Source: Zestosphaera tikiterensis
GTDB taxonomy: Archaea > Thermoproteota > Thermoprotei_A > Sulfolobales > NBVN01
Assembly (NCBI GenBank): GCA_003056265.1
Contig: NBVN01000004.1
Span: 150,001-182,000, forward strand
DNA: 32,000 nt
Direction of reading: 5' to 3'
Shown here: positions 1,868-20,431 of the stretch, in pieces
Layout: each line of letters opens with the position of its first letter
Position numbering within the stretch: the first letter of the stretch is position 1
Position numbers and translations under genes: made by a program
The notes under the pieces: model-generated
Database searches by the model: none
What the model saw: the letters and a program-made list of their open reading frames with translations, nothing else
Told to the model about the DNA's origin: nothing

Positions 1868-3697
1868 ATGTTTATGAAACCACGTAAGTTATTAAGAAGA
1901 AGCTTCACGATTGAAACACTTAAGAATTTAGTTAAAGCTGCTAAGGGAGAATTGAAATCAACTTTAATCTTAAGGAACGCCAACTTAGTTGACGTTGTTT
2001 TAGGGGATATTAGAGAGAAGGTCAACATAGCTGTTTGGAACGGCTACGTAGTTCGAGTGGGTTATTTCGACGTGGATAGGTATAGAGGTGATGAAACGTT
2101 GGTTATGGACGTAAGCGACGCTGAAGCCGTGGTTCCGGGGTTTATAGACCCGCATGTGCATATAGAGTCTTCACTACTTAAGGTTAGTGAGTTTTCAAAG
2201 CTGGCTTTAATTAACGGAACCACTACGGTTGTTGCCGACCCGCATGAGATAGCGAATGTATTAGGTGTTGAAGGGGTTAAGGCTTTCATCGAGGAGTCTA
2301 GGCAAACGCCTTTAAGGCTGTTTTTCTACGTGCCTTCATGCGTGCCTCCAACAAAGCTTGAGTTCGGTAAAGCAGCTACGTTAACCGTGGATGACGTGAG
2401 GGAGTTGATGAAGTATGAGGAGGTCATAGGGTTGGGGGAGGTCATGGATTTCATCTCCGTGATTAACGCCGACGACGAAATACTTGAGAAGATCTCCATA
2501 GCTAAAGCAGCCGGTAAAGTAGTTGATGGGCACGCCCCTCAACTACCGGAGGAGATGCTTATCCCGTATATAGTGGCTGGTGTGGAGGCAGATCACGAGT
2601 CCGTGTATTTAGAGGAAGCACTTAATAAGTTGAGGAACGGCATGCGTGTTTTAATGAGGGAGGGGAGTGCGTGGAGGGATGTGGAGGAGCTTTCTAAGAT
2701 ATTGACTTACATGCGTATAAACACTAGATACTTAAGTTTCGCAAGCGATGATTTGGAAGTTACTGACATGGTTGAGAACGGGCATATGAATAGGATTTTA
2801 AGGAGGGCTGTGTCCTTAGGTGTGGATCCAATAACGGCTGTTCAGATGGCGACGTTAAACACGGCTGAGTACTTAGGGCTTAAGGAGTTGGGTGCTGTGA
2901 CGCCCGGTAGGTTAGCTGATTTAGTTGTTCTTAAGTCTTTCAGGATGTTTCACGTTAAGGATGTTGTGGTTAGTGGGGAGTTGGTGGTTAAGGACGGTTC
3001 CTACGTTTTTAAGGATGGTGTTAAGTATGAATACCCTGAGAAATTCTTCAAGTCTTTAAAGGTTGGTAAGGTGTTAAGCGTTAACGACTTTAAAGTTAAA
3101 GCCCCTATTAAGGAAGGTTACGTTAATTACCTAGTTATTAAGGCGGTACCGGGTAAAGCAGTAACTAAGTCTGAAGTTGTTAAACTCCCCGTTAGGGATG
3201 GGTGGGTTTCCCTACCTACTGAAGGGGATTATGCTTACGTAGCGGTTATTGAAAGACATAAAGGTAGTGGTGAGGTCGGCGTTACTGTAGTTAAGGGGTT
3301 GGGTCTTTTAAGGGGTGCTTTAGCTCAAACCATAGCTCACGACGTACATAACATAGTAGTCGTTGGTAAGACAGCTGAGGAGATGCTCTTAGCGGTTAAC
3401 GAATTGATTAGGGTTGGTGGGGGTATGGTGGCGGTTTTAAACGGTGTTTCAATAGCCTCGGTGGAACTCCCTATAGCTGGTTTAATCTCAAACGAGCCTT
3501 ACGATCAGGTCTACGCCAAAGTTAAGAAGTTTAGCGAGTCGGTTAAGGCTTTAGGGACTTCCTTCCACTCAATATTTATGACGATATCCCTACTTTCACT
3601 TCCGGTGATTCCGGAATTAAGGATTACTGAGAAGGGGGTTGTTGACGTGTTAAGCGGTAAAGTCATCAACCCTATATTAAGCTTCGAGGGTAGTTAA
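1868..3697 (+). CDS. ade: Adenine deaminase
   Basis: 609-aa ORF with the PGFIDPHVHIESS signature characteristic of adenine deaminases (compare GxIDxHxHIESS). Its length fits the family. It is divergent from the 392-1792 gene across an A/T-rich promoter region. The start could be ATG 1868 or ATG 1874. Confidence 0.85.
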   Translation: MFMKPRKLLRRSFTIETLKNLVKAAKGELKSTLILRNANLVDVVLGDIREKVNIAVWNGYVVRVGYFDVDRYRGDETLVMDVSDAEAVVPGFIDPHVHIESSLLKVSEFSKLALINGTTTVVADPHEIANVLGVEGVKAFIEESRQTPLRLFFYVPSCVPPTKLEFGKAATLTVDDVRELMKYEEVIGLGEVMDFISVINADDEILEKISIAKAAGKVVDGHAPQLPEEMLIPYIVAGVEADHESVYLEEALNKLRNGMRVLMREGSAWRDVEELSKILTYMRINTRYLSFASDDLEVTDMVENGHMNRILRRAVSLGVDPITAVQMATLNTAEYLGLKELGAVTPGRLADLVVLKSFRMFHVKDVVVSGELVVKDGSYVFKDGVKYEYPEKFFKSLKVGKVLSVNDFKVKAPIKEGYVNYLVIKAVPGKAVTKSEVVKLPVRDGWVSLPTEGDYAYVAVIERHKGSGEVGVTVVKGLGLLRGALAQTIAHDVHNIVVVGKTAEEMLLAVNELIRVGGGMVAVLNGVSIASVELPIAGLISNEPYDQVYAKVKKFSESVKALGTSFHSIFMTISLLSLPVIPELRITEKGVVDVLSGKVINPILSFEGS

Positions 3698-3698
3698 C

Positions 3699-5045
3699 TT
3701 GCTTACGTTGATTAAAAACGTTAAGTTAGTGCTTCACGGAAATGAAGTTACTGAAGCTTCTATAGTGGTTGAAGACGGTAAAGTAGGTGCTGTAGTTAAA
3801 ACCTACGACTACTTAAGTAAGTACGATACTGTTGTAGACGGTTCAGGGCTTTTAGCGATCCCCGGAGGTATAGACATCCACGCCCATATTCACGACCCTC
3901 AGTACCTACATCATGAAGACTTCGAAAGCGGTAGCGTAGCCGCTCTATATGGAGGTATAACGACGTTTTTCGACATGCCTTTACGTACTTACGTTGAGGA
4001 TAGGCAGTCCCTAGAGGTTAAGGTAGATGCCGGTCTTAAAATGTCTTACGTAAACTTCAGCGTTATTGCTGGGATGATGAATGAGAGGAACGTTTCTAAA
4101 GTCCCCGTACTTAGGGATTTAGGTGTTAAAGCCTTCAAAACTTTTACGTGTAGGCCCTTCAAACCTGAAAGCGATGGAGGTCTAGCTTTAGTTTTAAGTG
4201 AGGTTAGTAGGTACGGAGGGGTTAACGTAATACATGCTGAGGACGACTCCATACCTGAGTACTTAATGAGTAAGTTTAGAGGTGAGGGTAGGAACGACCC
4301 CCTAGCCTACCATGAATCAAGACCCGACGTTGTTGAGGGGATAGCACTTAATAAAGTTTTAAGCTTGACTTCCTTCTTAAACGTTAAGGAGGGGGTGCAC
4401 ATAGCTCATTTATCCTCCGCTTTAGGACTTAAGGAAATAGTTAAAGCTAAATCCGAAGGAATCAACGTAACTTCCGAAGTAACGCCGCATCATCTATTCT
4501 TCACTAAAGAAGACGTTAAGAAGTTAGGTAACTACCTTAAATTAGCTCCAACGCTAAAAACGAGGGATGACGTCATGGCTTTATGGCAAGGCTTAGCCAG
4601 GGGTTTCATAGAGTCCGTGGCTTCAGATCACGCCCCAGCCACTAAAGAAGAGAAGGAGGTAGATACGTGGAGTGCGTGGGGCGGCATACCGAATTTGGAG
4701 ACTATGCTACCTTTAGTTTTTACGTTAGGTTTTAAGAAGTTAAGCTTACTAACTTTAAAGAGGTTTATAGAGGTAACTTCAGAAAACCCAGCTAAGATTA
4801 TGGGTTTATACCCTGCTAAAGGGTCTTTAAGTGTGGGTTCCGACGCGGATATAACGCTTCTTGACGTAAATAAATGCTTTAAAGTTAAAGCGGATGCTCT
4901 CCATCATAAAGTCGATTGGACGCCATACGAAGGTGTTGAGATGTGTGGATGGCCTAGGAAAGTCTTCGTGAATGGTTTACTAGTTTTAGATGAGGGTAAC
5001 GTAATAACGGAGAATAGAAAACCTAAATATTTAAGGATAGTTTAA
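3699..5045 (+). CDS. Cyclic amidohydrolase (dihydropyrimidinase/allantoinase/dihydroorotase family)
   Basis: 448-aa ORF with the motifs PGGIDIHAHI, GGITTFFDMP, AFKTF (candidate carboxylated Lys), HAED and SDHAP. The TTG start lies 1 nt after the ade stop, which suggests translational coupling. Confidence 0.8.
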   Translation: MLTLIKNVKLVLHGNEVTEASIVVEDGKVGAVVKTYDYLSKYDTVVDGSGLLAIPGGIDIHAHIHDPQYLHHEDFESGSVAALYGGITTFFDMPLRTYVEDRQSLEVKVDAGLKMSYVNFSVIAGMMNERNVSKVPVLRDLGVKAFKTFTCRPFKPESDGGLALVLSEVSRYGGVNVIHAEDDSIPEYLMSKFRGEGRNDPLAYHESRPDVVEGIALNKVLSLTSFLNVKEGVHIAHLSSALGLKEIVKAKSEGINVTSEVTPHHLFFTKEDVKKLGNYLKLAPTLKTRDDVMALWQGLARGFIESVASDHAPATKEEKEVDTWSAWGGIPNLETMLPLVFTLGFKKLSLLTLKRFIEVTSENPAKIMGLYPAKGSLSVGSDADITLLDVNKCFKVKADALHHKVDWTPYEGVEMCGWPRKVFVNGLLVLDEGNVITENRKPKYLRIV

Positions 5046-5052
5046 AACCTTC

Positions 5053-5295
5053 TTAAACAACTACAGGTATCTTCGCCTTCCTCAACAACTCCCTAAAGTC
5101 TTCTAAATCAAGTCCGGAGAAGTACGCTGCCCTCCTGATGTCTCCCGTCTCTATATAGTATTTTAAAGCCGCTTTAATTTTAGGGGGTTGCTTCTCTATG
5201 AAATCCCAATCAGCATGCTCCTTTCTAATTCTTCTAGCCTCCTCCTCTAACTCAACCCACTTTTTCTTTTTCATTGTTACCTCATCTTCACCCAC
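5053..5295 (-). CDS. UPF0175-like small antitoxin-type protein (copy 1)
   Basis: The C-terminal segment ALKYYIETGDIRRAAYFSGLDLEDFRELLRKAKIPV matches the UPF0175 pattern (...G.is.g.AA.laG.s...F..ll...gIp). The start overlaps the PIN-like stop by 8 nt (GTGGGTGA). An alternative ATG lies at 5274. Confidence 0.6.
   Translation of the reverse strand: MGEDEVTMKKKKWVELEEEARRIRKEHADWDFIEKQPPKIKAALKYYIETGDIRRAAYFSGLDLEDFRELLRKAKIPVVV
5147..5215. repeat. 69-bp perfect direct repeat, copy 1 (inside UPF0175-like gene 1)
   Basis: gtctctatatagtattttaaagccgctttaattttagggggttgcttctctatgaaatcccaatcagca is identical to 5929-5997. The flanking bases differ on both sides. Confidence 0.95.
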
Positions 5296-5845
5296 AGATC
5301 CTCCCCTTAATTAATTCTAATGCGTTTGTTAAATCTCTCCTAGGGAAGAAATGCCGAGTATCTTCTTCGTAGGCTTTAAATAATGTGTTTAACTCATTAC
5401 AACTTACTTTAAACATACCTTCGATGACGGCAGCCGTCAAGATCTCAAGAGCTCTCCAAACTACGACGTCTTTATAAGGAGTTATGAAGTCTACAGCCAT
5501 TATAGCCCCTCTATTTTCCGTTAAGACGACATACCCTCTCCTCCTACCTATGACTAAGCATAAAGCTTCAGGAAGGTCCACAGGGATTAAACTTCTAAGC
5601 TTTCTTGACTCTTCAGTAAGTTTCCTAGCTTCCTCAAGCTCTTCTGAAGTTTCCGTGTAGATGGACATATTACCTGAAGCTAGAGCTGAAGCAACCCACT
5701 CTACGGTTCTTTCAGATTTAATCTCTTTTAAAACTGATTCACTCACATATACAATATTAAATAACTTAAACATTAAGTCTCTATATCTGAAGCGAGCCCA
5801 ATCAATTATAAAGCAGGTGTCGGCTATAGCGAACCTAACAGACAT
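5288..5845 (-). CDS. PIN-like (DUF3368/COG2405-type) predicted nuclease/toxin
   Basis: 185-aa ORF. It has an N-terminal acidic-residue strand (IADTCFIID), a central PEALCLV segment, and LTENRGA in the position of the family DDxxAR motif. It is flanked on both sides by UPF0175-like ORFs with overlapping start and stop codons. Confidence 0.55.
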   Translation of the reverse strand: MSVRFAIADTCFIIDWARFRYRDLMFKLFNIVYVSESVLKEIKSERTVEWVASALASGNMSIYTETSEELEEARKLTEESRKLRSLIPVDLPEALCLVIGRRRGYVVLTENRGAIMAVDFITPYKDVVVWRALEILTAAVIEGMFKVSCNELNTLFKAYEEDTRHFFPRRDLTNALELIKGRICG

Positions 5846-6065
5846 TAGGTATCTTAGCCCTCACTCTAAGCTCGTTAAACTCATCAACAGTTAAACCAGC
5901 TATTCTTGAAGCCACGTACATATCGCCAGTCTCTATATAGTATTTTAAAGCCGCTTTAATTTTAGGGGGTTGCTTCTCTATGAAATCCCAATCAGCACAC
6001 TCCCTTCTAACCCTCTTAGCTTCATCGACATCCTCACGAGAAACCTTAGCCCTAAGGATCAACAC
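5835..6065 (-). CDS. UPF0175-like small antitoxin-type protein (copy 2)
   Basis: 76 aa. It shares the identical block ADWDFIEKQPPKIKAALKYYIETGD with copy 1. Its stop overlaps the PIN-like ATG by 11 nt. Confidence 0.6.
   Translation of the reverse strand: MLILRAKVSREDVDEAKRVRRECADWDFIEKQPPKIKAALKYYIETGDMYVASRIAGLTVDEFNELRVRAKIPNVC
5929..5997. repeat. 69-bp perfect direct repeat, copy 2 (inside UPF0175-like gene 2)
   Basis: Base-for-base identical to 5147-5215, offset 782 bp. Confidence 0.95.
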
Positions 6066-6239: not shown

Positions 6240-6433
6240 TTGGGTTACGTTAAGGTTAAAGCTAGGGTGTGGTGTTTAGAAAGCGGTGTTTCTAAGGAGG
6301 TATCCTTGCTTGCTGATATTGGAGCTATATATACTACCCTCCCAAGTAGTTTCCTAAAAGAGCTTGGTGTTAAACCAATGGACGTTAGGAAGTTTAAGTT
6401 AGCGAATAGCAGGATTGTTGAGAAGGAAGTAGG
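6240..6433 (+). pseudogene. Retropepsin-like (clan AA) small aspartyl protease, 5' fragment of an insertion-disrupted gene
   Basis: MGYVKVKARVW...VSLLADIGAIYTTLPSSFLKELGVKP...ANSRIVEKEVG matches the archaeal small aspartyl protease pattern (vDTGA..t.lP). After about 6433 the reading frame runs into unrelated element sequence and stops at 6479. Confidence 0.7.
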
Positions 6434-6464
6434 GTACGGGAGTAGTTTCTTGTTTGTAGGTTTT

Positions 6465-7481
6465 TCAAGGTCTCTGTAGGCTCCTTAATGCTCTTAGTGC
6501 CACTATGTATGCTGATGCTGTGTGAATATCTAGTCCTAGGTCTTCAGCTACTATTCGAGCAGATATTGAACTATAAAAGCTGGGTTTATTTTAATTAGTT
6601 TTTCATGAACCTTAGGAACTAACACCTCCATTTGCTGAATAAACTCTCTTAAAGCCATTTTAGTTTGCTTCCTCTTAGCAGTCTTGATTCCCTTTGGCTC
6701 CGGCCTAGAGAGCTTTTCAATAGCGTAATATCCTACTCCATGCTCTCTAGCATACTTTACTAGCCTGGCAATAGCTTCCTGCCTAATAGCTTTAGCGTTC
6801 TCTTTGAGGAAACCATGAGATGTAACCTCAGGAAAGTGTTCATTTTTAATATCCCTAATGATGCCTTTCCTATCTATTATGACCATACATACCCTACCAG
6901 GGTTAAAATCAAAACCCGCTATGTGTCCTACTATTTTAGCTTTTGTCTTCTTTCCTATGTATTTGGTGTAAAGTTCGAGAGGAACACTTACATGTATTTC
7001 AAAGCATTTGCTCTTTAAATAGATTCCTGCTCCATACGTGATGTTGGAGGCTATTAGCTCCTGTATTATGGGTATGTATTTCCTACCGAATTTAGCCTTG
7101 GCGATTATCCATCTATGCCTGCCGGATGCCGATGGAATCTTAATCTTAACAATATCTGATGAAACGAATTTTATATTCCTATTTACTTTTTTCGTCTTTG
7201 CTTCCTACCGAGAATAACTGTGGCTTTTTAAGCTTAAGATATGGTTGCTCTCTATATAGTCTAGCTCTTTTATATGCTGAGTAGGAGTACCATTTGTTAT
7301 TCAATATCCTCGATGTAAGTAGCTTGACAATTTCATTTTCTTTTACTCCTTTCCTCATTAATGAGTGAGCATACTCTACTGCATCTTTAAAATTCCTCAT
7401 AACGTATAGGAGAAGACCTCTATCTTCAGGTGAAGAAACTATGAGCCTACCTTTAATTGTTGGCTTTATTTCTTTCTCCAT
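6465..7481 (-). pseudogene. TnpB/IS605-OrfB-like RuvC-fold protein lacking the zinc-ribbon, broken by two 1-nt homopolymer frameshifts
   Basis: Three minus-strand frame segments join into a ~340-aa protein. Segment 1 is 7481-7179 (MEKEIKPTIKGRLIVSSPEDRGLLLYVMRNFKDAVEYA...). Segment 2 is ~7190-6551 (...IKIPSASGRHRWIIAKAKFG...VGHIAGFDFNPGRVCMVIIDRKG...YYAIEKL...KINPAF). Segment 3 is ~6575-6465 (YSSISARIVAEDLGLDIHTASAYIVALRALRSLQRP*). Candidate RuvC acidic residues sit in GFDFN, AIEKL and GLDIH. There are no Cys pairs between NPAF and LDIH, where TnpB normally has CxxC...CxxC. The shifts occur at an A6 run (~7185-7190) and a T4 run (~6580). Confidence 0.6.
6468..6480. repeat. Left subterminal inverted-repeat core of the element
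   Basis: AGGTCTCTGTAGG. Its reverse complement matches 7807-7819 at 12/13 positions. TGTAGG also occurs at 6454-6459. Confidence 0.7.
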
Positions 7482-7624
7482 TTCTCAACTACCATCCTAT
7501 CATTCTCCTCATCATAATAAACAATTAGCTTATCACCTTCTTTCAATCCCATCCTTTCAGCAACCTCTCTCGGTATAGTCATTCTCAGCTTAGGAAGTAC
7601 CCTATAGACACCCACTAATTCCAT
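7466..7624 (-). CDS. AbrB/SpoVT-type (looped-hinge helix) small DNA-binding protein
   Basis: My own translation gives MELVGVYRVLPKLRMTIPREVAERMGLKEGDKLIVYYDEENDRMVVEKWRKK* (52 aa). The ...MTIPREVAERMGLKEGDKL.V segment is the SpoVT/AbrB signature. It overlaps the TnpB-like ATG (7481) by 16 nt. A TATATAAA box lies ~20 nt upstream, so the transcript may be leaderless; an alternative GTG start lies at 7615. Not in the ORF track because it is under 60 aa. Confidence 0.6.
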   Translation of the reverse strand: MELVGVYRVLPKLRMTIPREVAERMGLKEGDKLIVYYDEENDRMVVEKWRKK

Positions 7625-7640
7625 AGTATCCCCAGAAACA

Positions 7641-7664
7641 TTTATATACCTCTAGATATATAAA
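7641..7664. promoter_or_regulatory. Palindromic bidirectional TATA element inside the insertion element
   Basis: The sequence is TTTATATA-CCTCTAGA-TATATAAA. The 8-bp arms are perfect inverted repeats, so a TATATAAA box faces each direction. One faces the AbrB/TnpB-like operon on the minus strand. The other faces the GC-rich segment 7687-7845 on the plus strand. Confidence 0.55.
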
Positions 7665-7686
7665 TTTAGTGGTACTCTCAACCCTG

Positions 7687-7845
7687 ATGATGAGGGCGAG
7701 GGGGATGAGCACCAAGTGAACTATGCTTCGCCAATGGCTCTGGAGAACATAGCGACCCTCTGGAGCCGTAGGCGGGGCATAGGGATGCTTAGCCGTGATG
7801 AACCGTCCTACGGAGACCTAAAAAGACCGTAGGCGAAGAACGGTT
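7687..7845 (+). ncRNA. Candidate structured RNA (R1) at the element end, reading outward toward the flank
   Basis: GC content rises sharply against the AT-rich surroundings, starting ~25 nt downstream of TATATAAA (7657-7664). Stems seen by eye are CCCT/AGGG (7682-85/7693-96), GGCGAG/UUCGCC (7695-7700/7727-7732), GGCTC/GAGCC (7737-41/7763-67) and CCGTAGG/CCTACGG (7766-72/7807-13). There is also a terminal hairpin AACCGTCCTACGG-loop-CCGTAGG(CGAAGA)ACGGTT (7801-7845) that ends exactly at the inferred element boundary. No ORF is present. Strand and ends are inferred, not shown. Confidence 0.35.
7801..7845. repeat. Right-end subterminal hairpin of the element
   Basis: AACCGT (7801-06) pairs with ACGGTT (7840-45). 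CCTACGG (7807-13) pairs with CCGTAGG (7827-33). The loop is 13 nt and there is a 6-nt bulge. CCTACGG can alternatively pair with the upstream CCGTAGG at 7766-72. Confidence 0.6.
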
Positions 7846-8008
7846 AGTAGGTATTGAAGTTATGGGGTTAAGAACACATACTGTGGTAATTTTCGGTGAT
7901 GAAGGCGTATACCTCTTGGGTGTTGTTACGTTAGAGGAGTTAGGGCTTGAAATAGATCCTATTAAAGGTGAGCTTAAGCCAGCTGAGTTATTGTTAATGA
8001 AGCTTTAA
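7846..8008 (+). pseudogene. Retropepsin-like aspartyl protease, 3' fragment
   Basis: Translation from ~7852 gives (G)IEVMGLRTHTVVIFGDEGVYLLGVVTLEELGLEIDPIKGELKPAELLLMKL*. This matches the conserved C-terminal half of the small archaeal aspartyl protease family (..viFG.eg...LLGv.tLE.LGL.vDP..g.L.p). Confidence 0.7.
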
Positions 8009-8517: not shown

Positions 8518-9270
8518 TTGGCTGAGAGTTTAGCAGTGAGTTTGGTTGAGCCTATAATTCAAGAGTATGTTAGGAGGGTTATTGAGAAAGCTAGGGCTGG
8601 TAAGAAGCTTAGCGATTGGGAGATAGGTATGTTGATGATGGATTATATGAGGATATCGTTATCGAATAGGATTAGCTCTGTTGAAAAGACTTTGTCTGTA
8701 AGGATTGACTTAATGGAGAGTAGACTTAATGGTGTTGAGGGTAGGCTTGATCGTGTTGAGTCTTCCGTTAATGACTTTAGAGAGAAGCTCACAACCTTCG
8801 ATAAGAAGTTTGGGATGATTGAATCTAGGCTTGAATCTCTTGAAGGTAGGCTTAACAGCGTTGAAGGCAGACTTAACGGTGTTGAAAACAGGCTTGATCA
8901 TGTTGAAGGCAGGCTTGACCGCATCGAGGGTAGGCTTGATCGTGTTGAGTCTTCCGTTAATGACTTTAGAGAGAAGCTCACAACCTTCGATAAGAAGTTT
9001 GGGATGATTGAATCTAGGCTTGAATCTCTTGAAGGTAGGCTTAACAGCGTTGAAGGCAGACTTAACGGTGTTGAAGGCGGCCTCAACGACTTAAGGAGTA
9101 AGTTCGACGCTTTCGATAAAAGATTTACGATTGCGGAGAGTAAACTCGTAAACGTTGAGAAAGGCGTTGAATACTTGAAAGGAAGCCTAGACTCACTAAG
9201 AGATAACGTAATAAACGTTTTAGTTGCTGAACTTAAGAGAAGAGCAGGTATAGAGTCAAAACAGCCGTAG
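8518..9270 (+). CDS. Heptad-repeat coiled-coil protein of unknown function
   Basis: 250-aa ORF. Its central part is made of xxRLxxVE heptads (ESRLNGVEGRLDRVESSVNDFREKL...). It has a non-repetitive N-terminal ~60 aa and no catalytic motif I recognise. Confidence 0.7.
   Translation: MAESLAVSLVEPIIQEYVRRVIEKARAGKKLSDWEIGMLMMDYMRISLSNRISSVEKTLSVRIDLMESRLNGVEGRLDRVESSVNDFREKLTTFDKKFGMIESRLESLEGRLNSVEGRLNGVENRLDHVEGRLDRIEGRLDRVESSVNDFREKLTTFDKKFGMIESRLESLEGRLNSVEGRLNGVEGGLNDLRSKFDAFDKRFTIAESKLVNVEKGVEYLKGSLDSLRDNVINVLVAELKRRAGIESKQP
8737..9075 (+). repeat. Perfect 150-bp duplication with a 189-bp (63-codon) period inside the coiled-coil gene
   Basis: 8737-8886 is identical to 8926-9075, checked line by line. 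The duplication is in frame and duplicates GRLDRVESSVNDFREKLTTFDKKFGMIESRLESLEGRLNSVEGRLNGVE. Confidence 0.95.
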
Positions 9271-9509: not shown

Positions 9510-9542
9510 GCAATAGATATCCACTTCAAGATGTGTAGTTTT

Positions 9543-9716
9543 CCCTAAAGCCTGAGCGTCTCCCATCACGTGGTGATTAAGGAGGTGATCCCTCGGTGGG
9601 GGACGCGGGTGAAGGCTTTAGGTGGGGTTGCCACGAATGGGGGTGAGGGCGATGACAAGCCACCGATGAACTCAAGAGACGACTAAACCTAATGAACCCC
9701 AAGGTCTACATAGGCA
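9543..9716 (+). ncRNA. Candidate structured RNA (R2) with a K-turn-like junction and an internal 12-13 nt complement of the 16S rRNA 3' end
   Basis: This is a GC-rich island in an ORF-free region. The outer 10-bp stem is CCTAAAGCCT (9544-53) with AGGCTTTAGG (9613-22). The inner 9-bp stem is GCGTCTCCC (9556-64) with GGGGGACGC (9598-9606). The two stems are joined by GA on one strand and GGGUGA on the other, which is K-turn-like. The enclosed loop contains AAGGAGGTGATCC (9579-9591). The block TGAGGGCGA..GATGA..TGAACT (9644-9675) is collinear with 7691-7722 of R1. Confidence 0.35.
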
Positions 9717-11142: not shown

Positions 11143-11219
11143 TGGTGGGGCCGCGGGGATTTGAACCCCGGACCACGGGGACCCGAACCCCGCATTCTAC
11201 CAAGCTAAACTACGGCCCC
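11143..11219 (-). tRNA. tRNA-Pro (anticodon CGG), CCA encoded
   Basis: The minus strand reads GGGGCCG-UA-GUUUAGCUUGGUAGAAU-G-CGGGG-UUCGGGU-CCCCG-UGGUC-CGGGG-UUCAAAU-CCCCG-CGGCCCC-ACCA. It has a 7-bp acceptor stem, a 5-bp anticodon stem and a U33-CGG-G37 loop. The T arm is GGGG/UUCAAAU/CCCC. A CTTTTAA TATA-like box (rc of 11244-11250) is centred ~27 nt upstream. Confidence 0.95.
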
Positions 11220-16900: not shown

Positions 16901-19900
16901 ATGAATAGTAAGTACGCAGATATAAGATCGTATGTATCGATAGCAATGGCAATACTATTCATACTACCAATACTAGCTACAATACCTGTACAATCACAGA
17001 TAACAGCAGTTAAAATAACATCAGTATCAACACCTGCATACCCAGGGAGACCTGTAAACATAACATTGGATGTAGGTCTAACTACAACAGTAACAGTAAG
17101 TCTATGTAATGATAATGCATGTACAAATGTATGGGCCCAACAATCATTTGTACCACCACAGCCAGGAACATATACAGTATCACTTGTATTACCAAAGCTT
17201 CTACCAGGAGCAACAGATGCCGATACTAATGGTATGGTTGATCTATATGTTAAGGTATCAACAGTCTTTGGCGCAGAACCGCAGAAAATAGATGTAGCTC
17301 CAGTAATAGAGGTTACCCCAATACAAACAGCAAATGTAAACCCCGATGGAACGTCAAAGAACATTGAAGTTAACTTCTATGGATTTAAACCTAGTGACAG
17401 CATAACAAGTGTGACTTTCACAGGACCGACAACAGAAAGCTTTAGTGTAACGGTAAATGTAGGTTCAGATGGAAGTGCCTCTACCACTATACCACTTAAA
17501 GACATAACAGGCTATGGTCTTCCCAGAGGGACATACACCGTTAGCTGTACTCCAGGAACTACTGATATGGCCTCTGCAAAACCAGGAAGCTTAACGATAG
17601 TTCCACAAGCAATTATAATTCCAGCAGAGGGTAATGGAAGATGTGATGGTGTTGTATGTGAATCCTACCAAATCATGATTACAGGCTACGGGTTTGATCC
17701 AAAGGTTTCCGTGACAAGAATAGATCTGCTCAATCTGAACTTCACAAAGGTTGTATACTCCAATACCAGTGTCAATGTTGCAACCAATGATTATGGGTAT
17801 TTCATAGCTGCAAAACTGTTTAAGACTAATATGAGTGCTGGTCTATATATACCGATAGTCTATACAGCACCTACATCTAAAACAGTGTCAAACACTAGCG
17901 ATAATATAGGTGTGGCTACAAAGAGTAGTGTAGTTATATCACAGAGCGCCATATATAACACTCTAGGCACTAAAGCATCTGTAACAGCTACATCTTTTGT
18001 AAATGGTACATGGCAATATGTAGAGAAATACTCAACAATGTCCTATACATTATCAGAGGTACTAAGAATAGACTTTACAGAATCCGGTAAGAACTATAGA
18101 CTTGCAGCAAATCTTGAACCAGCTGGTATAAGGTTTACACTATATAACATAACCCCTGCTGTACCTGTAACCCTTAACACCACATTGGTACTAACTACAT
18201 GGAATGATACAATCAAAGCTTATATAGCTAACTATTCATTCAGTATAACACCAACACCTGCATATGGACCAGGAGTAGCAGGTGGTGGGTATAAGTATTG
18301 GGCAACATTCTACAACTATTCAAATATGATACTGCTTAGGCTGAAGGTAAATGACTTTGTTGTTACATATGCTAATCTATCTATAGTGTATAGCAATGTT
18401 GATACAGGTGTAACCAAGAGTTTCTACTATGAATATCCAGCAAATCTATCTATAGTAGCTGGTGCCGCTAGTGTAACTGTTCCAAAGTTTACAGATGCGG
18501 ATATTAAGTGGAAGATAACATGGTCTATGAATCTACCTTCTGGTGGGACTACATATACAGCAACTCTAACTGTTACTGGACAGCCGCTTAAGGGACCTGT
18601 AGATGAGTTTAGAAATGTTGGATATATTGTTAGACCAATATTGGTTGTTATTGCATCCACCGGAGTGTTGTTGCCAGAACAGAAGGTTACTATTGCTGCC
18701 TATGGATATGGTCCTGGAGCATCTTACTATCCAGGCTATAACACTTTGTATGTGTATTGGGAGAAGGTAAGGCTATTAACAACTGTACCTCTTGGCAATG
18801 ATGGTAATGCAACGTTTGTTATAACAATACCTGGTGATGCTAGCTTCGGTATACACTATATCTATGGTGTTGACTCTTGGAAGCCCCTACCATATGAGTA
18901 TACATTATCTATAGTTGTTGGAGCAAAAGCCTACTGGGCAATACCACCAGCGTTACCTGAGAAACCCGAGGTCTCAGCTGGATATAATAACACACGTTTA
19001 GAGGTATGTCCATGTCCAGGTGTCTATAGCGGTGTTGGGTATTGTGATAAATGTGTTACTTATATAGCTGAATGTGACTATCTTGGTGACTATATAGATG
19101 TGACAGTATCCGGTTTATCGCCGGGAGAGACCTTGACTGTAAGGTTTGGCGACATTGTTGTAAAGACCGTTAAAGCTAATAGCTCTGTAGAGACAATAAG
19201 ATTTGTTGTTCCAACCGTTCCAGCAGGTAGCTATCCAATAAGTGTTATCGGAAGTGTTAGTGGTACCATAGATGTAACAGACTTTATGTTCATCAACAAG
19301 ACTACCAACACCAAGCAGATAAAGCATGGTATCCTGCTCGAGGTAGTGCCGAAGATATTGTTGCTGGATCTAGAGAAAGACGTGTTGCCAATACTTGTTG
19401 GGCCAGGGTTTGTAAGGGTTATAGGTACAGGTTTCAAGCCTGGCATAGCTGTAAGGGCAGTATTGTTCAATGATACTGACGCTGCATATATGCTCAATAT
19501 GCAGGTACAGAGCTGGTCTGCTGACGCTAGAGGTGTGCTGAAGAGTCCATTTACGGAAAAGGCAGGTATATACGTACCTGCTCTAGAGCCTGGTGCATAT
19601 GAGGTATCTCTGGCATACGTTGAGGGTACCAAGACTAAGGTATCGAAAGCAGGTCTTGTATATGTTATTAACAATGTTAGTATAGTGACAACAAAGTATG
19701 ATCTCAATAACGCTGAATCTAGAATTTCAAACAAGGTAGATTCAGCTATTGCGAACATTTCTAGTAAGATAGATTCAGCCACGACAACTATTTCCAGTGC
19801 AGTAACATCGCTTCAAGATCTCATAAGCAGTAAGCTTGACTCTATAGCAAGCGATCTAAAGACGACATTGAATCTTGTTAGTGATAAGATTACTGGCATT

Positions 19901-20431
19901 AGTGATAAAGTTGATACTGTACTAAAACAGCTTGACAGTACCTCTAAGACTCTTAGTGGAGTTGCGAATGATGTATCATCGATAAAGAGTGATGTGAGTA
20001 GCATAAGAAGTGATGTCAGTAAGGTCTCAGGAGCTTTATCTGATCTAAAAAGCTCTATAGATGCTATAAAGAGTGCTACGGATAACATACCAGGGATTAA
20101 GAATTCGATAGCAACACTCTCAGACACGGTCAATAAGTTAACACCAACTATAGAGCAACTTAGGGCGGATATCACAGGACTTAAGACAGACGTAGCATCA
20201 GTGAAGAACGACGTAGCATCAGTGAAGACAGACGTAAGCTCAGTTAAGAACGTTGTTAGCGGGTTAGAAGGCTCTATTAAGTCAGCGATCGATGCCTCTA
20301 AAGCTGAGGTAGGCGGTAAGGTAGACTCCCTCTCAATAGCTGTATACATAGCAGTGATATTCGCCTTACTGTCCTTCATAATGTCCCTACTGGTATACTT
20401 CAGCATGAGGAAAGCCGTAGCGACTAAGTAA
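16901..20431 (+). CDS. Large surface (S-layer-like) glycoprotein with signal peptide, C-terminal coiled-coil stalk and transmembrane anchor
   Basis: 1176-aa ORF. It has an N-terminal hydrophobic signal (VSIAMAILFILPILATIPVQSQ). The body is Thr/Ser/Val/Asn/Tyr-rich and Lys/Glu-poor, with at least ~20 N-x-S/T sequons by eye. The last ~260 aa are Ser/Asp/Lys heptad-type repeats (DVASVKN DVASVKT DVSSVKN...). It ends in a hydrophobic helix (LSIAVYIAVIFALLSFIMSLLVYF) plus a basic tail. A strong Shine-Dalgarno motif and a T-rich terminator flank it. Confidence 0.75.
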   Translation: MNSKYADIRSYVSIAMAILFILPILATIPVQSQITAVKITSVSTPAYPGRPVNITLDVGLTTTVTVSLCNDNACTNVWAQQSFVPPQPGTYTVSLVLPKLLPGATDADTNGMVDLYVKVSTVFGAEPQKIDVAPVIEVTPIQTANVNPDGTSKNIEVNFYGFKPSDSITSVTFTGPTTESFSVTVNVGSDGSASTTIPLKDITGYGLPRGTYTVSCTPGTTDMASAKPGSLTIVPQAIIIPAEGNGRCDGVVCESYQIMITGYGFDPKVSVTRIDLLNLNFTKVVYSNTSVNVATNDYGYFIAAKLFKTNMSAGLYIPIVYTAPTSKTVSNTSDNIGVATKSSVVISQSAIYNTLGTKASVTATSFVNGTWQYVEKYSTMSYTLSEVLRIDFTESGKNYRLAANLEPAGIRFTLYNITPAVPVTLNTTLVLTTWNDTIKAYIANYSFSITPTPAYGPGVAGGGYKYWATFYNYSNMILLRLKVNDFVVTYANLSIVYSNVDTGVTKSFYYEYPANLSIVAGAASVTVPKFTDADIKWKITWSMNLPSGGTTYTATLTVTGQPLKGPVDEFRNVGYIVRPILVVIASTGVLLPEQKVTIAAYGYGPGASYYPGYNTLYVYWEKVRLLTTVPLGNDGNATFVITIPGDASFGIHYIYGVDSWKPLPYEYTLSIVVGAKAYWAIPPALPEKPEVSAGYNNTRLEVCPCPGVYSGVGYCDKCVTYIAECDYLGDYIDVTVSGLSPGETLTVRFGDIVVKTVKANSSVETIRFVVPTVPAGSYPISVIGSVSGTIDVTDFMFINKTTNTKQIKHGILLEVVPKILLLDLEKDVLPILVGPGFVRVIGTGFKPGIAVRAVLFNDTDAAYMLNMQVQSWSADARGVLKSPFTEKAGIYVPALEPGAYEVSLAYVEGTKTKVSKAGLVYVINNVSIVTTKYDLNNAESRISNKVDSAIANISSKIDSATTTISSAVTSLQDLISSKLDSIASDLKTTLNLVSDKITGISDKVDTVLKQLDSTSKTLSGVANDVSSIKSDVSSIRSDVSKVSGALSDLKSSIDAIKSATDNIPGIKNSIATLSDTVNKLTPTIEQLRADITGLKTDVASVKNDVASVKTDVSSVKNVVSGLEGSIKSAIDASKAEVGGKVDSLSIAVYIAVIFALLSFIMSLLVYFSMRKAVATK
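20189..20251 (+). repeat. 21-bp tandem repeat x3 (heptad-coding) in the stalk region
   Basis: gacgtagcatcagtgaagaac / gacgtagcatcagtgaagaca / gacgtaagctcagttaagaac encode DVASVKN, DVASVKT and DVSSVKN. Confidence 0.85.

Follow-up and report, generated by a model that had tools for sequence, protein, structure and literature searches.

The 32,000-nucleotide stretch of the Zestosphaera tikiterensis genome analysed here (contig NBVN01000004.1, positions 150,001 to 182,000; hereafter the window) carries at 6435–7843 a decaying small archaeal element of the IS200/IS605-like type, which encodes an AbrB/MazE-type protein and a disrupted TnpB-like protein of the ribbon-helix-helix (RHH)/MazE-TnpB clade and which ends, upstream of these genes and on the opposite strand, in a structured RNA. 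We have very little doubt that the plus strand of the window harbours here a conserved structured RNA gene. On the sequence evidence laid out below we regard it as probable, with moderate confidence, that the RNA is an independently transcribed guide of the omegaRNA type, the scaffold of which would lie within the element while the guide would be drawn from the flanking DNA. The RNA and its parts are the following.

7671–7843 (+): structured RNA scaffold of ~173 nt, the candidate omegaRNA-type scaffold (nhmmer, covariation, fold z −6.4, no T4 run).
7680–7708 (+): 5′ module, a 4-bp helix P1 (7682–7685 with 7700–7703) between kink-turn-like signatures (parsed in ~15 homologues).
7721–7782 (+): central long hairpin P2 (outer helix 7721–7732/7771–7782, inner helix 7736–7745/7758–7767, internal loop AA/GUA), the equivalent of Sso133 (RNAalifold, covariation).
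7793–7843 (+): 3′ module, with a terminal C-stem CCGU/ACGG (7793–7796/7840–7843), GUGAUGA at 7795–7801 opposite AAGA at 7836–7839, and a hairpin at 7804–7835 (CCTACGG...CCGTAGG) (covariation, invariant columns).
7844–7863 (+): candidate flank-derived guide TTAGTAGGTATTGAAGTTAT within protease coding sequence (flanks differ right after the scaffold; the guide role is putative).

The RNA is conserved together with the gene. Eighty related genomic loci (numbered with the prefix L) were searched, 55 of them with enough upstream sequence. With the window segment alone as a single-sequence nhmmer query, homologues were found in 23 of the 80 loci, all upstream of the gene and on the opposite strand, while a profile nhmmer search located the RNA in 49 of the 55 loci in the same divergent upstream arrangement, 183–275 nt from the gene start. 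The linkage of RNA and gene holds for proteins down to ~30% identity, and beside some proteins that are only 33–38% identical to that of the window the RNA is 80–92% identical over 50–80 nt. Its taxonomic spread covers Desulfurococcales, Sulfolobales, Thermococcus and Archaeoglobaceae. An earlier reading of this DNA, made from the sequence only, had proposed an outward-reading structured RNA of guide type, lying 5′ of a TnpB-like gene on the opposite strand at the element end; its structure and placement are upheld by this linkage and by the covariation described below, the guide function itself being putative.

The segment stands out from its surroundings in composition, with 56% GC in 7671–7844 against 36–40% in the neighbouring sequence, and holds open reading frames (ORFs) of 37–38 aa at most. 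Its plus strand folds at −78.3 kcal/mol (z −4.9) and its minus strand at −61.8 kcal/mol (z −3.05), both compared with shuffled sequences, and CCTACGG (7807–7813) pairs with CCGTAGG (7827–7833), a second copy of which lies at 7766–7772. The promoter palindrome, the GC-rich ORF-free folding segment and the hairpin repeats named by the sequence-only reading are thus all present, at coordinates that are exact or within 1–2 nt.

Covariation was assessed on a plain (unfitted) MAFFT alignment of 23 sequences, with a four-helix structure written from the window fold. Paired cells amount to 86.6% for this structure as opposed to 68.6% in shuffled alignments and 41–56% in slid-partner controls, and cells with double changes number 110 compared with 44.6 in the shuffles, none of 500 shuffles being as high. 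RNAalifold predicts the central hairpin with compensatory double changes in 10 of 15 pairs, and in P1 three of the four pairs are changed on both sides, the variants among homologues being CCCU/GGGG, GCCU/GGGC, GGUC/GGCU, ACCC/GGGU, GACU/GGUC and AGCC/GGCU. Covariation is strongest in 7721–7782; neither is conservation restricted to the terminal hairpin, nor is 7687–7800 free of covariation. Pairs of the G–U type occupy 128 of the 665 paired cells (19%) and include two invariant U–G pairs, and because the latter would be A–C mismatches on the other strand the sense of the RNA is the plus strand of the window, antisense to tnpB.

The 5′ module follows the signature (G)A-P1-GAU-GA-loop-GA-P1-GAU-GA and the 3′ module the form CCGU-GAU-GA-A-[hairpin]-AAGA-ACGG, in which the box-C-like GUGAUGA lies opposite xxGA. 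The terminal stem covaries (CCGU/ACGG, GGGU/ACCC, GGAU/AUCC), neither G7800 nor A7801 varies, A7839 is nearly invariant, and the nucleotides of the kink-turn consensus are the most conserved positions. Judged at the level of sequence by these patterns, the RNA carries three kink-turn-like motifs, which match the consensus of a C-stem, a 3-nt bulge, tandem sheared G·A/A·G pairs and a non-canonical (NC) stem and to which host L7Ae could possibly bind; in the first of them the window has AA at 7680–7681 in place of the GA of its homologues. The hairpin which the sequence-only reading saw ending exactly at the element boundary is present, though it is enclosed by the 4-bp terminal stem 7793–7796/7840–7843 and so belongs to a three-part, kink-turn-like module. 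That reading also allowed CCTACGG two mutually exclusive partners, for which we find no support, since the covarying central helix already holds the copy of CCGTAGG at 7766.

A scan of the window with Rfam, both at gathering thresholds and at E ≤ 10, returned no match in 7600–7860, C/D and H/ACA families included. In the Sulfolobales copies, however, the central hairpin is matched in the same orientation by RF02814, Sso133 (‘Sulfolobus sRNA133’, 73 nt), with 92.7 bits for L056 (gathering threshold 44) and 34.8 bits for L064. The RNA family is thus already catalogued as a small RNA (sRNA) without a stated function, which by homology speaks for its expression. The window RNA is not matched by RF02814 even at E = 10; it is tied to the Sulfolobales copies by profile nhmmer hits and by identical synteny. 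The Sso families reportedly derive from a transcriptome map of S. solfataricus.

Between the RNA and the genes lies a candidate bidirectional promoter.

7635–7670 (both strands): back-to-back archaeal promoters (palindrome and its recurrence in homologues; direction and transcription start sites are predicted).
7641–7648 (+): TATA box with BRE-like AGAAACA, apparently facing the RNA (orientation of the TFB recognition element, BRE).
7657–7664 (−): TATA box with a BRE-like sequence at 7665–7670, apparently facing abrB–tnpB (BRE orientation).

The palindrome TTTATATA-CCTCTAGA-TATATAAA occupies 7641–7664, CCTCTAGA being its N8 spacer. The arrangement TTTATATA-N8-TATATAAA occurs once in the 32 kb and in none of 100 shuffles, also with one mismatch permitted; it is found exactly in L002–L004 too, and homologues repeat two opposed TATA-like boxes with upstream sequence of the AGAAA type. 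The orientation of the BRE-like sequences is the ground for assigning the boxes: it suggests that the plus-strand RNA is driven by the 7641–7648 box, with a putative start at ~7671–7673, and the abrB–tnpB operon by the 7657–7664 box. Two opposed boxes, one for each direction, had been recognized in the sequence-only reading; its assignment of them was probably swapped, and its start at 7685–7692 would move to ~7671–7673.

At the other end of the RNA, similarity between elements stops right after the terminal stem (the last shared letters being ...GAACGGT, ...GGAACCCT or ...GACCCCT) and unrelated flanks follow, in more than 12 pairs of elements; in one subfamily, another 11 copies from metagenomes each lose their likeness directly after GGAACCCT. 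A run of four T is absent from 21 of 22 scaffolds despite the AT-richness of the genomes, and in the flank the first T-run comes 22 nt or more from the border (7890–7893 in the window). Since archaeal RNA polymerase terminates at oligo-T, transcripts of such a scaffold should be extended at the 3′ end by sequence from the flank, and a 3′ extension of this kind would have the geometry of an omegaRNA.

The place where an omegaRNA would be expected by precedent is the 3′ end of the tnpB-like gene, and it could be supposed that a canonical omegaRNA overlaps that end and is read outward through the element's left end, the divergent RNA being either an accessory or a hitch-hiking host sRNA of C/D- or H/ACA-like type. 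Such a same-strand 3′ omegaRNA is the arrangement in all characterised TnpB systems and the one guessed for this clade (PMC10691335), and the RNA does contain a perfect box-C-like GUGAUGA. Yet when the final 180 nt of 21 elements are taken in gene sense, neither a fold signal nor GC enrichment is seen (mean z −0.15, GC 0.38, like mid-gene controls), while the RNA has a mean z of −4.85 and a GC of 0.53; the stop codon lies ~30 nt from the element end, and L003 and L004, although 96% identical, have different tnpB 3′ tails. The canonical site was rejected on these grounds as the seat of an omegaRNA, and within the element there is no structured RNA candidate other than the divergent one. A hitch-hiking sRNA would fit poorly with the finding that 49 of 55 loci have the RNA linked to the gene; the Rfam scan gave no C/D or H/ACA match for the RNA, and its box-C-like motif is separated from the box-D-like one by a hairpin instead of an antisense guide. 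We consider this alternative very improbable.

The remaining features of the element and of the gene that it interrupts are given below.

6240–6434 (+): N-terminal portion of the gene for a retropepsin-like aspartyl protease, the left flank, ending in ...GAAGTAGGG (Pfam Asp_protease_2; intact 118-aa homologues).
6435–7843 (no strand): inserted mobile element of ~1409 bp, without target-site duplication (empty-site reconstruction; related elements).
6435–6464 (no strand): the element's left end as seen in RNA orientation, consisting of a short non-coding tail past the tnpB-like stop (MAFFT alignment of left ends).
6465–7481 (−): disrupted TnpB-like gene (RHH/MazE-TnpB, ‘RIIIr-4’-type; three-frame translation, 65 homologues, AlphaFold2/Foldseek).
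7466–7624 (−): gene for an AbrB/MazE-type DNA-binding protein of 52 aa, overlapping the tnpB-like start by 16 nt (PF04014, 41.8 bits; TIGR01439).
7844–8008 (+): C-terminal part of the split protease gene, the right flank (protease homologue alignment).

The borders of the element follow from the interrupted gene. The fragment at 6240–6434 matches a protein fragment of Zestosphaera tikiterensis with 100% identity, and eight intact protease homologues span the break as ...E(R/K)(D/E)VG(I/L)VGIE...; because these read continuously as ...EVG[L/I]VGIE... across it, the insertion is 6435–7843. Removal of this interval restores the protease frame, with no duplicated bases beyond a sliding ambiguity of 1–3 nt (start 6433–6436, end 7841–7844), and the boundary placed at 7845 by the sequence-only reading was therefore right to within 1–2 nt. 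Models with a shared GTAGGT or AGTAG at the junction were dropped in view of the sequence of the intact homologues. The conserved 118-aa protease gene is cleanly split, and the insertion looks recent, since its two halves have otherwise stayed intact and kept their frame.

Related elements measure 1.38–1.54 kb and, compared in more than 12 pairs, share both borders; Stygiolobus sp. CP850M and Sulfolobaceae RB850M each hold several copies with differing flanks in one genome. In one subfamily the left ends fold into a terminal hairpin, and the window left end 6435–6464 is homologous in a MAFFT alignment to the hairpin-forming left ends of L005, L090 and L093. The window left flank ends in GGG; several subfamilies start their shared sequence with GG or GGG while others differ, and in the window-like subfamily the flanks are G-rich.

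These end structures raise the question of whether the segment is simply the DNA-level right end of a transposon, its stems serving as single-stranded DNA hairpins for a Y1 transposase acting in trans and any transcript being incidental. The ends of IS200/IS605 elements do bear subterminal hairpins, related copies form one at their left end as well, and the lack of a target duplication at the window insertion is as in peel-and-paste transposition. However, 170 nt of GC-rich covarying structure go far beyond the needs of a transposase end, and G–U pairs in 19% of the paired cells, with invariant U–G pairs among them, a conserved dedicated BRE/TATA promoter and the kink-turn consensus nucleotides as the most conserved positions also speak against it; the homologous Sulfolobus segment is moreover catalogued as an sRNA. 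The two roles can coexist for the terminal hairpin, and a transposition-end structure alone, the fallback of the sequence-only reading, is unlikely as its sole role. As an account of the whole segment we judge it very improbable.

Several further observations concern the ends and copies of the element. L003 and L004 are identical at 96% over 1384 bp, RNA included, and nevertheless have unrelated tnpB C-termini and left-end tails (gene 3′ ends at ~3490–3550), a pattern suggesting that elements exchange their left ends. Copies of the motif (C/T)GTAGGC lie at the left end (6475–6481), in the central helix (7767–7773) and in the terminal hairpin (7828–7834). Terminal inverted repeats at 6459–6480 and 7807–7828 (82% over 22 nt) were set aside, being at about the chance level for 2.4 kb and absent in L001 and L003, and an apparent left end of L005/L008 was traced to a break of the alignment within the gene. 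Extra RNA copies without a detectable adjoining tnpB-like gene were found in L043 (1369–1569, +), L026 (4371–4262, −) and L067 (3025–2904, −), and are candidate solo-RNA derivatives or derivatives resembling miniature inverted-repeat transposable elements; that of L067 stands beside a mere 20-aa C-terminal remnant of a tnpB-like gene and looks like an internally deleted derivative which has retained both ends and the RNA. Within the window no second copy of the RNA was found.

The protein encoded beside the RNA has 65 homologues of 335–350 aa, in which RuvC-I (GFDFN) and RuvC-II (IExL) are invariant and the C-terminal motif LGLDxHTASAY is found; no CxxC motifs and no C4 zinc finger occur among them. 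Scores with TnpB models all fall below the cut-off (NF040570 guided_TnpB 21.8–30.6 bits against 100, TIGR01766 13.8–28.1 against 32, TIGR01765 25–32 against 47), and a Pfam scan, with a set that did not comprise the precomputed family PF27229, gave no match for the protein. The AlphaFold2 model of P0001, the closest intact homologue, has a pLDDT of 90.7 and a pTM of 0.81; the top 20 Foldseek matches in the PDB are nearly all Cas12f, TnpB, Cas12k and Cas12g (E down to 2.5e-10, TMq up to 0.62), with the Cas12f, ISFba1 TnpB and ISDra2 TnpB ternary complexes matched at a TM of 0.5–0.6. As modelled, the TnpB-like protein has the WED-REC-RuvC fold of RNA-guided nucleases. The small ORF upstream of the tnpB-like gene is AbrB-like in 33 loci and in most others weakly RHH-like and ~50 aa long, and the overlap of the abrB and tnpB-like genes fits an operon.

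The window copy of the element is decaying. Its tnpB-like gene, which ends in a TGA at 6465–6467 (minus strand) ~30 nt from the element end, differs from that of the closest locus, L001, by a +1 indel at ~7184 and a +2 indel at ~6577, both in A/T runs; the middle 200 codons are consequently out of frame and the copy is a pseudogene. The two indels jointly restore the frame; they may reflect genuine decay or, with lower probability, a mistake in the assembly.

Put together, these features would allow the following scheme. From the bidirectional BRE/TATA promoter at 7635–7670, transcription would run leftward into abrB–tnpB and rightward into the RNA, under likely repression by the AbrB/MazE protein, which by analogy probably acts through the palindrome. 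The scaffold so produced would comprise the 5′ helix with its two flanking kink-turn-like motifs, the central hairpin and the 3′ kink-turn-like motif, the C-stem of which would be the last 4 bp of the element, and read-through past it would add a 3′ guide from the flank (here TTAGTAGGTATTG...). The TnpB-like nuclease, possibly together with host L7Ae on the kink-turns, might then use the RNA to cleave element-free alleles, in which the left-flank motif is joined to the match of the guide, and such cleavage would lead to homing and retention as known for TnpB. In this arrangement the RNA would keep the outward-reading right end of canonical TnpB elements while the orientation of the protein operon would be reversed with respect to the RNA, and this reversal is what makes a promoter of its own necessary for the RNA.

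Several points weigh against a guide function. At the third-Asp position of the canonical RuvC triad the TnpB-like homologues have an invariant His, so that the D-E-D signature is not present; neither a tnpA nor any other transposase gene was found in the element or in those ORFs of the window that were scanned; and from the left flanks no conserved target-adjacent motif (TAM) could be defined across subfamilies, a sharp TAM being a feature of canonical TnpB systems. This particular locus may be inert, with a frameshifted tnpB-like gene and A for G in its first kink-turn-like motif. The stable Sulfolobus species might be processed and lack a guide, the Sso133 model covering as a 73-nt central hairpin only part of a ~175-nt scaffold. 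Finally, the authors who described the clade proposed for it a toxin–antitoxin role (Altae-Tran et al., 2023; PMC10691335); the element here is discrete, is present in multiple copies with variable flanks and interrupts a gene.

This last proposal leads to the alternative that the RNA is an element-encoded sRNA of another kind, regulatory or assisting in assembly, be it a titrator or inhibitor of the TnpB ‘toxin’ in a MazE-TnpB module, an L7Ae decoy or a product of promoter competition, with the true guide, if any, lying elsewhere. The toxin–antitoxin interpretation of the clade would suit it, as would the spacing of the two TATA boxes, which at 8 nt may make the promoters mutually exclusive, and it would account for the absence of a clear TAM and for the span of Sso133, limited to the central hairpin. 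An internal regulatory RNA has, on the other hand, no need of a scaffold that ends at the border or of the absence of a terminator; the scaffold meets the border in every subfamily. The RNA neither overlaps nor complements the mRNA, its 22-nt similarity to the tnpB 3′ end being in the same sense, the element offers no other structured RNA as a guide, and the TnpB-like protein has the full predicted fold of an RNA-guided nuclease. We hold a non-guide sRNA to be unlikely, and prefer the omegaRNA-type guide. An extended form of the guide interpretation is conceivable as a tentative proposal, about which we are more doubtful than hopeful: a whole archaeal TnpB lineage may have uncoupled its guide RNA, now antisense and under an AbrB/RHH-controlled bidirectional promoter, with three kink-turns that would recruit L7Ae as an obligatory component of the ribonucleoprotein (RNP), a stage resembling that of a trans-activating CRISPR RNA (tracrRNA), and would offer a 335-aa zinc-finger-free hyperthermophilic RNA-guided nuclease the guide of which is defined.

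Other features were noted in the window and beyond. At 5053–5295, 5288–5845 and 5835–6065 (minus strand) two paralogous genes of ~78 aa with the motif ADWDFIEKQPPKIKAALKYYIETGD bracket a 185-aa gene without a clear Pfam family, possibly a duplicated module of a small, perhaps antitoxin-like, protein and its partner. At 9535–9715, near TATA-like boxes, a second stretch is rich in GC (~55%), poor in ORFs and contains several GATGA motifs; it has no Rfam match, is not homologous to the RNA and shows no significant folding (z −1.3 and −1.2 on its two strands). Two coiled-coil proteins are encoded at 8518–9270 and 16901–20431, the first of 250 aa with DUF7310 and near-perfect internal repeats (RLNGVEGRLDRVESSVNDFREKL...). 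The sole Rfam/ARAGORN match in the window is a tRNA-Pro(CGG) at 11143–11219 (minus strand). In L031, from Thermococcus, the C/D-box sRNA sR38 (3526–3584) and the H/ACA RNA Pab91 (4711–4767) lie within ~1.5 kb downstream of the element, probably by coincidence.

The protein clade and the Sso133 fragment were each known separately. In the full-text literature searched (TnpB with K-turn, L7Ae or divergent guides) we found no description of a linkage between the RNA and the clade, of a divergent or upstream placement of a guide, or of a kink-turn-rich scaffold ending at an element border. The Rfam entry for Sso133 corresponds to the central hairpin of the RNA only and, as returned, names no link to TnpB; if our interpretation is right, this orphan sRNA would be assigned a function. 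The closest precedent for the kink-turns is provided by sRkB and sRkC of P. abyssi, GC-rich RNAs related to orphan OrfB (TnpB) elements, with two K-turns each, to which L7Ae binds in vitro by gel shift and footprinting, and by the transposase-linked RNAs of S. solfataricus, likewise bound by L7Ae (Phok et al., 2011; PMC3124441). Those RNAs differ from the present one in that they match OrfB ORFs at the canonical place, their sense 3′ end, and the likeness is drawn from features; the L7Ae RNA immunoprecipitation sequencing (RIP-seq) paper makes no mention of transposons. Kink-turns in the scaffold suggest that L7Ae may belong to an OMEGA RNP.

For the proposed control of the promoter a parallel exists in Arc, a small protein that binds DNA, is encoded by IS605 elements next to their promoter and represses transposon gene expression (bioRxiv 10.64898/2026.09.24.754181). 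Arc is an RHH protein, whereas the window copy encodes one of AbrB/MazE fold in an archaeal host and beside a bidirectional promoter, its repression of which is predicted here.

The archaeal RHH/MazE-TnpB clade (‘RIIIr-4’) was described as lacking the zinc finger and having His in place of the RuvC-III Asp, with an AbrB/MazE or RHH gene upstream, and was called non-mobile; its long 3′ UTR (untranslated region) was suggested as a place that might hold a guide (Altae-Tran et al., 2023; PMC10691335). The family described here shares with it the AbrB/MazE or RHH gene upstream of tnpB, the crenarchaeal and euryarchaeal hosts, the absence of the zinc finger and LGLDxHTASAY. It departs from that description in that the 3′ tail is ~30 nt, the sole structured RNA is upstream and divergent, and the window copy is inserted into a gene while several genomes hold multiple copies with varied flanks; this subclade, at least, is thereby shown to consist of discrete elements that are present in multiple copies and insert into genes. 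If it is a guide, the RNA would supply the one that is missing for this clade, and a thermostable nuclease of ~335 aa with a scaffold of ~173 nt would be testable as an editor.

With the canonical TnpB–omegaRNA systems of IS200/IS605 elements, such as ISDra2 (PDB 8exa, 8bf8), the system has in common the protein fold (Foldseek TM ~0.5), a scaffold at the outward-reading end with the place of the guide 3′ of it, a small element and the absence of a target duplication. In contrast to these, the RNA here is on the opposite strand and 5′ of tnpB, has a promoter of its own and does not overlap an ORF, its scaffold contains kink-turn-like motifs, the protein has no C4 zinc finger and a His at RuvC-III, and there is neither a tnpA nor a sharp TAM. 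An RNA upstream of or separate from the nuclease gene, in its own transcription unit, is also seen for the omegaRNA of IscB/IsrB and for the tracrRNA of Cas9, although these proteins belong to a lineage unrelated to TnpB/Cas12 and the IscB omegaRNA is on the strand of its gene. Among TnpB systems, the present one would thus be the first found in the literature searched to have its guide on the opposite strand and under its own promoter, an arrangement which, if confirmed, bears on the origin of the separate tracrRNA and CRISPR RNA (crRNA) units of type V.

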